Shown one piece after another: positions 34,692-51,839 of a stretch of 64,000 nucleotides of DNA. Made by a program: the position numbers and the translations under genes. Under the pieces are notes generated by a model that saw only the letters and a program-made list of their open reading frames with translations, ran no database searches and was not told where the DNA came from. The stretch is taken from NCBI GenBank assembly GCA_027490255.1, contig JAIXYM010000038.1, positions 6,233-70,232 of the forward strand, written 5' to 3'. Source of the stretch: Oxalobacteraceae bacterium (GTDB lineage: Bacteria > Pseudomonadota > Gammaproteobacteria > Burkholderiales > Burkholderiaceae_D). Numbering within the stretch: position 1 is the first letter of the stretch; the number at the start of each line of letters is the position of its first letter.

Positions 34692-35945
34692 TCAGCGATC
34701 AATCTCGCCGAACACGATGTCCTGGGTACCAATAATCGTTACTGCGTCAGCGATCATGTGCCCTTTCGCCATTTCATTGAGTCCCTGCAGGTGCGCATAA
34801 CCAGGCGCACGTATCTTCAGTCGGTAAGGCTTGTTCGCGCCGTCGGATACCAGATAGATACCAAACTCGCCTTTGGGATGCTCTACCGCTGCATAGGCCT
34901 CACCCTCAGGCACATGAAAACCTTCGGTGAATAACTTGAAGTGGTGAATCAGCTCTTCCATGTTCGACTTCATGTCGACGCGTGACGGCGGTGCGACCTT
35001 GTGGTTATCGCTCATCACCGGACCAGGATGATTGCGCAGCCATTCGATACATTGCTTGATGATGCGATTGGACTGACGCATTTCTTCAATACGAACCAGA
35101 TAGCGGTCATAGCAATCACCATTCACGCCGACGGGAATGTCGAAATCCATCAGGTCATAGACTTCGTAGGGCTGCTTCTTGCGCAAATCCCAGGCAATGC
35201 CCGAACCACGCAGCATGGGGCCGGTAAAGCCCATCGCCAGCGCACGTTCAGGTGATACGACACCGATACCTACTAGTCGCTGTTTCCAGATACGGTTGTC
35301 CGTCAGCAGTGTCTCGTATTCATCAACATAAGTCGGGAAACGATTGGTAAAGTCCTCAACGAAATCGAGCAAAGAACCCTGGCGATTTTCATTCAACCGA
35401 GCCATCGCCTTGTCATTGCGAATCAAGGATGCGGTGTACTGTGGCATGCTCTCCGGCAGGTCACGATAGACACCACCGGGACGGTAATAAGCAGCGTGCA
35501 GGCGCGCACCCGACACAGCTTCATAGCAATCCATTAGATCTTCACGCTCGCGGAAGGCGTAAAGGAACACGCCCATCGCACCCACGTCAAGCGCGTGCGC
35601 GCCCAACCACAGCAGATGATTCAGAAGACGAGTTATCTCATCAAACATCACGCGAATGTATTGCGCGCGCAGCGGTACTTCCAAGCCAAGTAGCTTCTCA
35701 ATGGCCATCACATACGCATGCTCATTGCACATCATCGATACATAATCGAGACGATCCATGTAGGGCACGGACTGCAGATAGGTACGCGTTTCAGCCAGTT
35801 TCTCGGTCGCGCGATGCAACAAGCCGATATGCGGATCAGCGCGCTGAATTACCTCGCCATCGAGTTCCAGCACTAGACGCAACACCCCATGCGCAGCAGG
35901 ATGCTGAGGGCCAAAATTGAGGGTGTAGTTCTTGATTTCAGCCAC
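34692..35945 (-). CDS. nuoD: NADH-quinone oxidoreductase subunit D
   Basis: [35 protein letters not shown]. The functional start is GTG at 35945 (417 aa), with an SD (GGAG) supplied by the upstream repeat spacer. Confidence 0.97.
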
Positions 35946-36235
35946 GACGCATCTCCCGCAACAAAACTTTGTTGCGCAGACCGGTGTATCTCTCAATTTC
36001 GGTGCAGGCTAACTTCGCGCTAGCGAAGTTAAGCGCACATCGCGCGCGGCCGGAGCCAAAATTGAGCGTGTAGTTCTTGATTTCAGCCACGATGCATCTC
36101 CCGCAACACAACTTTGTTACGCAGACCGGTGTATCTCTCAATTTCGGTGCAGGCTAACTTCGCGCTAGCGAAGTTAAGCGCGCATCGCGCGCGGCCGGAG
36201 CCAAAATTTAAGGTGTAGTTTTTTATCTCAGCCAT
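35911..36235 (-). repeat. Tandem array with a 145-bp period: three copies of the first 35 nt of nuoD separated by two 110-bp hairpin-rich spacers
   Basis: nuoD-start copies at 36201-36235, 36056-36090 and 35911-35945. Spacers 36091-36200 and 35946-36055 differ at 4 of 110 positions. Confidence 0.97.
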
Positions 36236-36237
36236 GA

Positions 36238-36834
36238 TTATTTCACCCCGTAATTCTCTTCGCGAATCACGCGCGGCACGTTTTCGCGCGGCTCGATAGT
36301 GACTGGCTGATAAATCACACGCTTTTGCTCAGGGTCGTAGCGCATCTCGACATAACCGCTGACAGGAAAATCTTTGCGGAACGGATGACCAATAAAACCA
36401 TAATCGGTGAGGATACGTCGCAGGTCATCGTGACCTTCAAACAAGATGCCAAACAAATCGAAGGCTTCACGCTCGTACCAATTAGCGGAGTTCCACAAAT
36501 CACTTACCGAGGGAGCCACAGGCAAATCATCATCGGGGGCAAAGGTACGCACACGAAGGCGCCAGTTGTGGGTGACGGACATCAGGTGCGAAACGACAGC
36601 GAAGCGCGCACCATGCCATGCACCATCACCATAGGATTCGTAATCGACACCGCACAGATCGAGCAATTGCTCAAAACGCAGCGAGGCATGGTCACGCAGG
36701 CTTTGCATCACCGACAAATATTCGGCCGCAGCCACAACGACTGTGATTTCGCCGAGCGCGACTGATACCGAACGGACGCGATCACCCAAGACTTCTTGAA
36801 GCGCCGATTCCAGTGTTACAAGTTTGGTTGTCAT
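36238..36834 (-). CDS. nuoC: NADH-quinone oxidoreductase subunit C
   Basis: [45 protein letters not shown]. Confidence 0.97.
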
Positions 36835-37973: not shown

Positions 37974-38058
37974 TGGTGCCGACGGCGAGACTCGAACTCG
38001 CACAGCTTTCGCCACTACCCCCTCAAGATAGCGTGTCTACCAATTTCACCACGTCGGC
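37974..38058 (-). tRNA. tRNA-Leu(GAG)
   Basis: GCCGACGTGGTGAAATTGGTAGACACGCTATCTTGAGGGGGTAGTGGCGAAAGCTGTGCGAGTTCGAGTCTCGCCGTCGGCACCA: 85 nt, long variable arm, anticodon GAG, TTCGA loop, encoded CCA. Confidence 0.96.
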
Positions 38059-48110: not shown

Positions 48111-49805
48111 ATGCCAAAATTTCCCACTCAAACTTCAAGTCAAGCGCTCGAGATATACATAAAAGAAATACAACGTGGAAATGAGGTCAGGGTCTCAAGA
48201 AAAACCAATCGCATCTACAAAGCCAATTTGGTTGATAAATTGATTTTAAAAATCGATCAAAAATTTTTTGACGGCACTCAAGCGTCACTTTGGCGCGCCG
48301 AGGCAAAAATGTCCATCATCAATAAATTTTCAGACGAGTGTGCTTTGGTTCAACCTAAAATGACCCGCACAGAAAATTCATTGGTCAGGACATCACTATT
48401 TTCTGAGTGGGACAATTCAGAATTCGATAAAAAAACCGTCGACGATATAAAAGATAAATTTTTAATATCTGTAAATACCAACTCAAAAACACATGAAAAT
48501 ATAAAAAAAATCTTAGAAAACGATATTAATCCAAATGAGTATTTTTTCAAAGAAGCAATTAAAAAAGGTAAGGATTTTGACTTTGCTGTTGAGTTATCAA
48601 AAAAAGCTAATTCATTAAAAGGAAATCTTGGGCTACCAAAAAACTATATTTTTCACCTCACCTATAACGCACAACTTCTCCAAAAAAAGCATAATTTTTC
48701 AATCGGCGAATGTGTCAACATAATCCAATGTTCAGATCGGCTTGTTACCAAGCACAGGATAAACGAATCCGAAGCGCTTTCCTTTGCAATTGATTTGAAA
48801 GAGCCACTAAATTCAATGAATTTGAGTTTTGATGATATTTCGTCGATAGCACGATCAATTTTTCATAACGGCAGTTTTTCCGAAAAAACCAAAATAAGTG
48901 CAGCGCTTGCTTATTGCCAATTGAAAAATTTGGGTAAAGATCATGAGCAATCAATGTCCATCATAAAAAAACGTATCGACAACCTTAAACATATTGCACT
49001 CCAGCTACCAAAGGGCTGTAAGGCAGAATGCATTCATCAAGGCGCACATATACGCGGCAGATTCAAACTTACCCCCGATGAGATAGCAAGCTGCGAAAGC
49101 AAACTAAATTCACTTAAGCCAGACCAAGCCATCAACCAGGAAAAAGGATTAACGGAAAAATTCGGATCAATGAGCGCGCAATTCGGAAAAGACATAAGAC
49201 GCATGAATTATCAATTCCTTAAAAATGGAAAAACCGCTCCTGAGGTTCGATCACTAATTCCAAATGACACAAAATTGAACATCGGATCAACCGATCAAGA
49301 AAAAGAATCATGGGTAAGAAGTTTCATCGACTATGCAGGTGGGGAAAATGCAGCAAACGTACTTTCTGCTTTCATATCTCAAACCATGTTTGGCGATATA
49401 AGAACAGTTACAGCATCTTCGAATAGTAAAGATCTATCTGTTCAATTTACGGGACAACTGGGCACGGATAATTTCAATTTTTTAGTTGACCAAACGGAAG
49501 TTAATAAAGTGCGTAAAACTTTGGTGAAAGCAACACAATTTATCAATCCGATGAAGATGACAAGTACAAACTTGAACCAAAATGACTATCTTCCAGACGC
49601 TACCGCAGAATTTAAACTGATATCCGCCATTGGAAATGATCAACGCGCAACACCCACTGCCTTTGGTGCAAAGTATGAATGCGAGCTCGAGTTCGATGCA
49701 GAAAAACTTCAGCAACAAATTGTTGACTTCACAATAAAGCGAATTGTCGCGGAATTTGATCTGGTACTTGACCAAGATAACGTCGATCGCTACTTTGAAA
49801 AGTAG
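48111..49805 (+). CDS. Hypothetical protein, 564 aa, in the AT-rich island
   Basis: Long ORF in AT-rich DNA, where a chance ORF of this length is unlikely; degenerate ~21-aa repeats and a C-terminal domain related to the 369-aa ORF. Confidence 0.85.
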   Translation: MPKFPTQTSSQALEIYIKEIQRGNEVRVSRKTNRIYKANLVDKLILKIDQKFFDGTQASLWRAEAKMSIINKFSDECALVQPKMTRTENSLVRTSLFSEWDNSEFDKKTVDDIKDKFLISVNTNSKTHENIKKILENDINPNEYFFKEAIKKGKDFDFAVELSKKANSLKGNLGLPKNYIFHLTYNAQLLQKKHNFSIGECVNIIQCSDRLVTKHRINESEALSFAIDLKEPLNSMNLSFDDISSIARSIFHNGSFSEKTKISAALAYCQLKNLGKDHEQSMSIIKKRIDNLKHIALQLPKGCKAECIHQGAHIRGRFKLTPDEIASCESKLNSLKPDQAINQEKGLTEKFGSMSAQFGKDIRRMNYQFLKNGKTAPEVRSLIPNDTKLNIGSTDQEKESWVRSFIDYAGGENAANVLSAFISQTMFGDIRTVTASSNSKDLSVQFTGQLGTDNFNFLVDQTEVNKVRKTLVKATQFINPMKMTSTNLNQNDYLPDATAEFKLISAIGNDQRATPTAFGAKYECELEFDAEKLQQQIVDFTIKRIVAEFDLVLDQDNVDRYFEK

Positions 49806-49844
49806 AAATACTGTAGAGATTCACTGATTCAGCAAGGTGCTTGT

Positions 49845-51839
<1,995 letters not shown>

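Follow-up and report, generated by a model that had tools for sequence, protein, structure and literature searches.

A small structured repeat between nuoC and nuoD and the synonymous divergence of duplicated gene ends

Introduction

In a 64,000-nucleotide stretch of DNA from a freshwater Oxalobacteraceae bacterium (assembly GCA_027490255.1, contig JAIXYM010000038.1, positions 6,233 to 70,232; here called the window), the beginning of nuoD occurs three times downstream of nuoC. The three copies differ in their DNA but encode the same residues. How could a displaced gene start be carried along without decaying, and how could an essential operon tolerate the DNA between the copies? An initial annotation proposed that an insertion inside codon 12 of nuoD had supplied a new Shine-Dalgarno sequence and a recoded start. 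Here we describe two tandem 145-nt units, each built around a small nonautonomous repeat. In the account that we consider probable, the coupling of nuoC to nuoD was kept, and the synonymous pattern came from exchange with, or import of, functional gene starts.

Results

All features of this locus are on the minus strand of the window. nuoC (36238..36834) has 198 codons according to the open reading frame (ORF) list and the sequence, and its orthologue in L001 (compared loci carry L numbers) is recorded with the Pfam domain Complex1_30kDa. The nuoC stop TAA (36240-36238) is followed by TC and then by an ATG at 36235. This ATG opens copy 1 of the nuoD start (codons 1 to 12, 36200..36235), which reads ATG GCT GAG ATA AAA AAC TAC ACC TTA AAT TTT GGC. 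Copy 2 (36055..36090) reads GTG GCT GAA ATC AAG AAC TAC ACG CTC AAT TTT GGC. Copy 3 (35945-35910), which has a GTG start and ends in ACC CTC AAT TTT GGC, is the first 36 nt of nuoD proper (34692..35945, 417 codons). NuoD of the window has 87 to 98% amino acid identity to the 417-residue NuoD of Oxalobacteraceae and related metagenome bacteria. Reading the sequence confirmed the spacing of 145 nt exactly as first annotated. The reported differences were also correct: copy 1 departs from copy 3 at six positions (ATG/GTG, GAG/GAA, ATA/ATC, AAA/AAG, and two in TTA/CTC) and copy 2 at one (ACG/ACC), all of them synonymous. Copy 1 occupies the ancestral position, as had been suggested, and in the element-free L157 and L160 nuoC runs directly through TAA and TC into the ATG. 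Tandem Repeats Finder described the array as 2.3 copies of period 145 with 93% matches.

A unit has four parts: a core of about 61 nt, a short segment designated X', a spacer of about 46 nt, and a copy of the first 35 nt of nuoD. X' repeats, in inverted form, the bases immediately before the insertion point and lengthens the outer stem of the junction. The core consists, in order, of GG, CTCCGGCCGC, GC hairpin 1, hairpin 2 (CTTAAC..GTTAG), and GCCTGCACCGAAA. That of unit 1 (36142..36202) was identified by a covariance-model match of 85.7 bits, its fold, and covariation, and that of unit 2 (35997..36057) by a match of 89 bits and a fold z score of -3.6. X' of unit 1 (TTGAG, 36137..36141) was assigned from sequence, fold, and covariation. 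Together with CCGAAA it makes up the 3' arm CCGAAATTGAG, which is complementary to CTCAATTTTGG of copies 2 and 3 with one G-T wobble and pairs more poorly with CTTAAATTTTGG of copy 1. The spacer of unit 1 (36091..36136) includes a small hairpin (CGTAACAAA/TGTGTTGCG) and a Shine-Dalgarno sequence, GGGAG (36102-36098), 7 nt from the GTG of copy 2. X' (TTGAG) and spacer of unit 2 (35946..35996) have the hairpin CGCAACAAA/TTTGTTGCG and GGGAG at 35957-35953. The ~109-nt stretches between the start copies differ at 4 positions (3.7%), compared with 17% for copy 1. Units 1 and 2 are nearly identical, and therefore the second is a recent tandem duplication. The third start copy would have come from this later event, in which the entire 145-nt unit was doubled; unequal recombination between direct repeats is the simplest route.

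Misassembly does not account for the two units. In a separate freshwater metagenome, k-mer depth was 50 over the shared stretch versus about 25 in the flanks, and assemblies L130 and L136 have two units each, as in the window. Unit number varies among close relatives, which have zero, one, or two. At 97% NuoD identity to the window, L155 has one unit and the junction of L157 is empty; at 94%, L159 has one and L160 is empty. The initial annotation had also raised the question of cargo genes between the units, and there are none. The window and L149 differ at 4 positions of the 109-nt element, and their nuoD third positions differ by 0.31. We scanned divergence for a dip confined to the element, as horizontal transfer might leave. 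The element is more conserved than synonymous sites, and the flanks have no boundary effect.

Simple slippage duplication was ruled out as an origin of the array. The core recurs as a dispersed repeat at unrelated sites. A DNA pattern made from the core only, run against species-representative genomes, yielded 120 stretches. About half are chance matches in high-GC genomes, and about 55 carry the hairpins. These structured copies include about 45 distinct non-nuoD sites, so that most are not at nuoD. The core occurs in Thiobacillus, Hydrogenophilus, Sulfuritalea, Sideroxydans, Methylophilus, Paraburkholderia, Bordetella, Rubrivivax, and other genera. The repeat family is widespread in Betaproteobacteria, and what was inserted upstream of nuoD is a member of this dispersed family, found at many genes, and not the product of a nuoD-specific event. 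There are no further copies of the core within the 64-kb window, by pattern or by covariance model with filters off, and a blastn search of PLSDB plasmids in distant mode returned no match to the element. We also compared all ORFs in the 8-kb flanks of the 55 loci against each other. No transposase, recombinase, or reverse transcriptase recurs, and the only recurring genes are those of nuo and dcw. No parent insertion sequence (IS) was found in the flanks, the plasmids, or the literature searched. The papers that were searched, by concept and by sequence words of the element, contained no published name or description of it, which does not prove that there is none.

Local alignment of the flanks revealed long direct repeats at many loci, ending at the core or 2 nt before it. 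The duplicated gene ends are 33 to 79 nt long and variable, and wherever a case was analyzed in detail, the gene that was interrupted exists in complete form to one side of the element. The 3' end of ccmE is duplicated in four genomes; in L111 the repeat is identical at 79 of 79 nt and ends two bases past the ccmE stop. The tRNA-Phe gene is interrupted in its anticodon loop, with a repeat that extends to the CCA end, and ARAGORN still finds an intact tRNA. Duplicated starts were found for a thiolase-like gene (L012), for a gene in L057, and, in seven genomes, for murG in the dcw cluster, where the element is in the opposite orientation. A second subfamily, with many intergenic copies, has a constant tail (ACTNCGTTTTCG), and no long repeat was detected there.

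These other sites help to place the nuoD junction. The initial annotation had the insertion inside codon 12. Insertion at codon 11/12 stands, but the break is more likely after TTTT, between the two codons. At non-nuoD sites the duplicated target of the same element ends at TTTT and the GG is part of the element. Because of this, and judging from sequence, the nuoD junction most likely follows codon 11 (TTT), with the element's own GGC mimicking Gly-12. In other genomes codon 12 of the real copy is GGT, GGA, or GGG, and that of the leader copy is always GGC.

Some loci are more complex. At the ftsW-murG junction of Paraburkholderia (L036, L096, L100, and L121), the murG start with its Shine-Dalgarno sequence (GGGGGGAAGGT ATG ACC CCC ATG CAG CAG CGC ACG) flanks a reverse-oriented core. 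The duplicated murG-start sequence forms an inverted repeat of ~21 bp with the region upstream of it, which could hide the murG ribosome-binding site. Tandem and nested core arrays occur in L108 (three cores, 146 to 147 nt apart), L117, L091, L010, and L106. In L108, the third core has an X' complementary to the left flank of the first, an arrangement that looks as though a single original hairpin had later received further units inside it. L040 and L078, which belong to the same metagenome-assembled genome, have two core copies that share ~40 nt of flank on each side; therefore, the repeated unit is larger than the core in some genomes.

As a single strand, the unit is predicted to fold with an 11-bp outer stem closing a three-way junction. 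We tested this structure (29 pairs) for covariation in 33 diverse cores. Cells able to pair made up 90%, versus 76% in shuffles and 27 to 49% when the partners were slid. Changes on both sides occurred in 137 cells versus 50 in shuffles. The covariation score was 0.34 versus 0.108 for shuffled data, and none of 500 shuffles reached the observed value. RNAalifold independently recovered hairpin 2, and six pairs vary on both sides. The five outermost pairs are built from target sequence, and their types differ from locus to locus. Of seven flank positions, 4.64 pair on average, compared with 3.61 +/- 0.16 when flanks were permuted between loci. Within nuoD, X' and target covary (AATTTT with GAAATT, AACTTT with GAAGTT). 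The termini of the element itself, TTTTGGCTCCGGC and GCCTGCACCGAAA, are only about 10/14 complementary. Modeling and covariation together show a core that would fold, as single-stranded RNA or DNA, into a three-way junction whose outer stem is locus specific. A locus-specific stem beside a constant core suggests a mechanism that copies or reads the target. No Rfam family matched positions 35500-36700 on either strand at E <= 10, and ARAGORN found no tRNA or tmRNA in the element.

How is nuoD translated downstream of two such units? The old ATG begins leader ORF 1 (36083..36235), whose 50 codons comprise copy 1, the core, and the spacer, and whose TGA overlaps the GTG of copy 2 (GTGGCTGA). Copy 2 begins leader ORF 2 (35938-36090), also of 50 codons. 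This arrangement is general. The ~30 distinct nuoD loci cover at least six types of unit length (127, 129/130, 134, 145, 146, and 151 nt), and in none of them is the ORF that begins at the old start interrupted within the core. The leader stops at +8 (overlap ATGGCTGA or GTGGCTGA), +1, -2, -3, -4, or -7 relative to the real start. Matches to the core pattern at nuoD (GG and final A excluded) are 55, 58, or 67 nt long, all 1 mod 3, while outside nuoD every length class occurs. Between ccmE and ccmF it is the opposite strand of the core that is read, and the ORF begins in an ATGA that overlaps the ccmE stop. That ORF overlaps the ccmF start in L051 and L102, and in L111 ccmF starts ~27 nt further on. 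A protein search with the 50-residue copy 1 ORF returned 51 clusters, all with the same beginning and in several length classes. Some amino acid differences among them look like compensatory hairpin changes (LNFA..AKLA versus LDFA..AKSA). Among metatranscriptome contigs of related bacteria, some run from nuoC through copy 1 into the core, and some join the core, the spacer, and nuoD. These contigs, which can show presence only and not absence, contain no joints that skip 145 or 290 nt.

In the model that we propose, the old ATG, still coupled to the nuoC stop, would open the 50-codon ORF that runs through the core to the TGA overlapping the next GTG. Ribosomes would pass from nuoC to leader 1, leader 2, and nuoD by termination and reinitiation, and the essential operon would be spared polarity. 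From the arrangement of stops and starts, translational coupling from nuoC to nuoD looks preserved. Regarding the new start proposed by the initial annotation, the functional start is now the downstream GTG, with its own GGGAG 7 nt upstream. It could have been supplied from outside or by local duplication. A bridging ORF would explain the many short "hypothetical proteins" called between nuoC and nuoD (the 51 clusters).

Two further features of the reading frames deserve mention. Upstream of the GTG, the nuoD frame has no stop back to a TTG within unit 2 (35996), so that an ORF of 434 codons is open (34692-35996). Automatic annotation could call this extended TTG start, which is probably the wrong one, and so gene callers may pick a wrong nuoD start. 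Also, ATA AAA AAC of copy 1 holds a canonical -1 frameshift heptamer, A AAA AAC (36220-36226), in the correct register. Only L153 shares this heptamer; other genomes read ATC AAG AAC, and the heptamer is probably incidental.

We considered that the spacer might be a decayed duplicate of the nuoC 3' end, comparing ..VLREMHRG of the leader with ..VIREENYG of NuoC, but dropped this idea because alignment against shuffles gave a mean z of 0.39. L028 is an exception in that 28 nt upstream of its copy 1 match the element spacer. In the 40 nt between the nuoC stop and copy 1 of this genome, a mini-ORF (MSHHDSNRTREA) overlaps the nuoC stop (AAATGA) and 26 of 33 nt match the spacer. The mini-ORF is probably what is left of one more unit, part of which was deleted.

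We next consider the synonymous pattern. It holds across relatives, which do not show nonsynonymous decay at a neutral rate, the outcome named beforehand as counting against it. Between leader copy and real copy there are 66 synonymous and 4 nonsynonymous differences over all loci. Part of the nuoD loci were found with patterns that force codons 5 to 12, and codons 2 to 4 were unconstrained by any search pattern. Codons 2 to 4 alone gave 18:1 in favor of synonymous differences (p about 3e-11 against a neutral 22% synonymous, which overstates the case because the loci are related), and loci found by the core pattern alone gave 16:1. The direction of the bias is not in doubt. Free pseudogene decay is excluded, because a neutral pseudogene would show about 64% nonsynonymous differences.

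Mean pairwise divergence was calculated by segment for 15 loci of the window's 145-nt type. Copy 1 is coding-like across these related loci, diverging by 0.257 at third codon positions and by about 0.006 at the first two. At third positions the real copy has 0.109, versus 0.358 for nuoD at large. The core has 0.081, and the spacer has 0.32 overall and 0.04 to 0.18 within the window's subtype. Native starts of element-free relatives have the same kind of synonymous variants as copy 1 of the window (GAG, ATA, AAA, and TTG). We rejected codon usage as a signal. ATA and TTA of copy 1 are rare in this genome, but the native starts of relatives use them too.

A second array in the window has the same property at a 3' end. 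The ilvC ORF (50256-51272, minus strand) is followed by a tail array (49845-50315, minus strand) of three tandem units of ~150 nt. Each has the last 13 to 14 ilvC codons and TAA, and then a Y-shaped element of ~108 nt with a GC hairpin and a hairpin like an intrinsic terminator. All differences from the real tail are synonymous, 8 of them in tail 2 and 3 in tail 3. The same array is present in L163, where tail 2 has 10 synonymous differences, and ilvC of L164 has no element. The hairpin stems of the units differ by changes on both sides. The pseudo-tails lie behind a stop codon and a terminator-like hairpin, have no Shine-Dalgarno sequence, and follow an in-frame upstream ORF that is not conserved between units. 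Because of this position, and because the frame of the upstream ORF is not conserved, translation-based selection is hard to argue at ilvC. The covariance model of the nuoD core does not detect the ilvC element. It is a different element, and we claim no kinship between the two. After ilvC unit 3 (49800-49845, minus strand), ACAAGCACCTTGCTGAATCAGTGAA agrees, by eye, with 16 of 25 positions of the ilvC tail. This may be a fourth tail, the original one, in a decayed state, and in that case would be the sole copy with ordinary decay.

Discussion

Why, then, do the displaced copies not decay? For the cause of the synonymous pattern we favor exchange or import, then direct selection on the translated copy, and then a guide-carrying homing element. 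Under exchange or import, a displaced copy would remain in genetic exchange with functional nuoD starts and so would not decay freely. This is the least certain step of our account. Homologous recombination with element-free relatives could overwrite nuoC and copy 1 up to the heterology. Alternatively, the element could bring along a gene start shaped by evolution as a working start in a different lineage. Prophage e14, with the 3' end of icd, is a documented precedent (PMC13626634).

Several observations weigh against this account. Many loci have identical copies (L130, L134, L142, L111, and L058), for which import from a diverged donor is a poorer explanation than gene conversion or fresh duplication on the spot. 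The lineage-specific residues D3 and M9 are common to both copies of a genome. Tail 2 of ilvC differs between the window and L163 at 8 positions, all synonymous by hand comparison. Seemingly orthologous pseudo-copies that diverge only synonymously after lineages split are not easily explained by exchange or import; in-place selection or positional shuffling within arrays would explain them. The distribution of the element suggests mobility, and no enzyme recurs in its flanks. Judging from the constant-tail copies, insertion may not always yield a long duplication. No derivation of the spacer from the native nuoC end was detected. Finally, the coupling model is read from conserved anatomy.

An alternative is direct purifying selection on the displaced copies in place. 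It would act on the NuoD-like N terminus of the leader peptide, which would have a function of its own, or on codons or residues needed for coupled initiation, and likewise at other gene ends. Copy 1, coding-like as described above, lies inside a conserved and probably translated ORF in its native frame, and the same is true of the ccmE pseudo-tail. At ilvC, derived states (GCT AAA, TTR) are common to the window's pseudo-tails and those of L163, which are nonetheless 8 further synonymous changes apart, and each pseudo-tail keeps an in-frame GTG-CCN-TGG. However, there is no plausible role for a 12-residue mimic of the ends of three unrelated proteins, and the rest of the leader changes amino acids freely while preserving hairpins. 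The ORFs that precede ilvC tails 2 and 3 are in different frames, and the half-copy of tRNA-Phe is noncoding yet identical to the real one. We think that direct selection is unlikely to be the explanation.

A true homing element would comprise the core, X', the spacer, and the replacement end. X' would act as a guide, an enzyme supplied in trans would insert the element by TTTT, and arrays would form by repeated insertion. In keeping with this, independent loci have X' sequences complementary to their own targets, X' and target covary within nuoD, and the same genes (nuoD, ccmE, murG, and tRNA-Phe) have been struck in distant taxa. The real copy and the element are more uniform than host genes, and the ilvC units differ by compensatory stem changes, as if assembled from separate lineages. 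However, the 8-kb flanks contain no candidate enzyme, and new targets would require joint acquisition of X' and a replacement end. The sharing of D3 and M9 variants by both copies of a genome also argues against homing. So does spacer divergence, which tracks host divergence between element subtypes and suggests mostly vertical descent. This explanation is doubtful. A bolder reading is an undescribed class of nonautonomous mobile elements in Betaproteobacteria, in which a Y-shaped DNA or RNA module of ~60 nt enters gene ends by TTTT, carries or creates a guide-like X' and a replacement end, and homes to the same gene in other genomes; we regard such a class as improbable. Were it real, essential genes and translational coupling would outlast the insertion, and the synonymous divergence at nuoD and, with a different element, at ilvC would be a footprint of this life cycle.

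Less likely still is an adapted regulatory RNA of the nuo operon, in which X' would serve as a switch or attenuator that sets the NuoC:NuoD ratio and the duplication would be part of the device. X' is able to pair with the copy on either side, the structure shows conservation and is present in transcripts, and the synonymous sites of the real copy are unusually conserved (the third-position values given above). But the same core accompanies unrelated genes, in either orientation to transcription, and also occurs in tRNA genes and between genes, close relatives lack the element, and Rfam has no match at the threshold used.

It is very improbable that NuoD is made from the upstream ATG with the element skipped by translational bypassing or mRNA excision: protein-level selection on copy 1 would then explain the synonymous-only pattern directly, TTT GGC codons match at both unit ends, and a stable structure starts at the would-be take-off site, but no stop follows the would-be take-off codon GGC, the leader stays open for 29 to 38 further codons and ends at the next start in every locus (needless for bypass), the landing codon is GGT, GGA, or GGG and not GGC in many genomes, the RNA contigs contain the element and have no skipping joints, the ilvC and tRNA cases lie outside its reach, and the gap of 130 to 290 nt is several times that of T4 gene 60, which is 50 nt.

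Returning to the repeat itself, we compared it with known systems. [quoted passage not shown] Like them, it is often intercistronic and cotranscribed, has imperfect inverted termini (TTTTGGC.. / ..GCC..CCGAAA), and is sometimes clustered or nested (L010 and L106). However, MITEs make a fixed target duplication of 2 to 10 nt, whereas here the duplication is 33 to 79 nt, variable, or undetectable. Also unlike MITEs and REPs, the element takes its outer stem from the target sequence, sits repeatedly inside gene ends, and has no known autonomous partner or transposase.

Rickettsia palindromic elements (RPE) are small palindromic selfish repeats that are tolerated in protein-coding genes of the essential set. 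An RPE is in frame and becomes part of the host protein, whereas here the gene is rebuilt by the duplicated end and the element would be translated only as a separate bridging ORF. RPE are cited in a review of MITEs (PMC10969869). RAYT-type transposases are reported to be absent from betaproteobacteria other than Thauera (PMC2817692).

A parallel for the replacement end comes from integrative elements, such as e14 and phage 21 in icd and islands at tRNA 3' ends. As with our element, their direct repeats run from the crossover to the gene end and have mainly synonymous differences. Under the integrase sublocation rule, one class of tRNA site lies in the anticodon loop, with the repeat extending to CCA. 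The tRNA-Phe cases match this anticodon-loop site, and the arrays of three repeats resemble element accretion at one attachment site. Direct repeats that restore the interrupted gene occur at nuoD, ccmE, tRNA-Phe, the thiolase-like gene, and the L057 gene. But the unit is 110 to 150 nt, without integrase or cargo (there is no integrase between the repeats of the 127- to 151-nt units), one core is associated with many gene ends, and no recombinase core-site architecture was recognized. Excision of e14 swaps the icd end for icdC, giving "multiple identical synonymous changes" (PMC13626634), and excision of an icd-type element leaves a chimeric but working gene (PMC13626634).

The junctions also resemble coupled stop/start junctions in operons, which likewise have ATGA and GTGGCTGA overlaps and a stop within a few nucleotides of the next start. 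Unlike the leader ORFs of operons, the coupling ORF here is no gene but a read-through of an inserted repeat, in both repeat orientations. The IS1634 group makes long variable target duplications, and its members are 1.9-kb autonomous elements with DDE transposases and no inverted target copy. The long variable duplication is a likeness to our element, and the other features set the group apart. Integron attC sites have the form R''(RYYYAAC)-L'' ... L'-R'(GTTRRRY), an imperfect palindrome of >= 57 nt. We rejected an attC identity because GCTTAAC/GTTAGCC resemble R''/R' but span 28 nt including the boxes, leaving no room for L boxes, and GTTAGCC has one mismatch to the consensus.

The element is thus MITE- or REP-like in size, structure, and dispersal and integrative-element-like in its replacement end, and it fails defining features of each. 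It belongs to an apparently undescribed family of small structured repeats located in gene ends. If this is true, selfish DNA could live harmlessly in genes for complex I, cytochrome c maturation, and cell wall synthesis and in a tRNA gene, with the gene end rebuilt and the element translatable as a bridge between neighboring cistrons. Duplicated ends that diverge only synonymously, even where translation is implausible, are a clean system in which to study the effects of recombination or insertion on apparent pseudogenes.

Elsewhere in the window, between secG and nuoA and with no copy of the element nearby, lies an ordinary tRNA-Leu(GAG) gene (37974-38058, minus strand).

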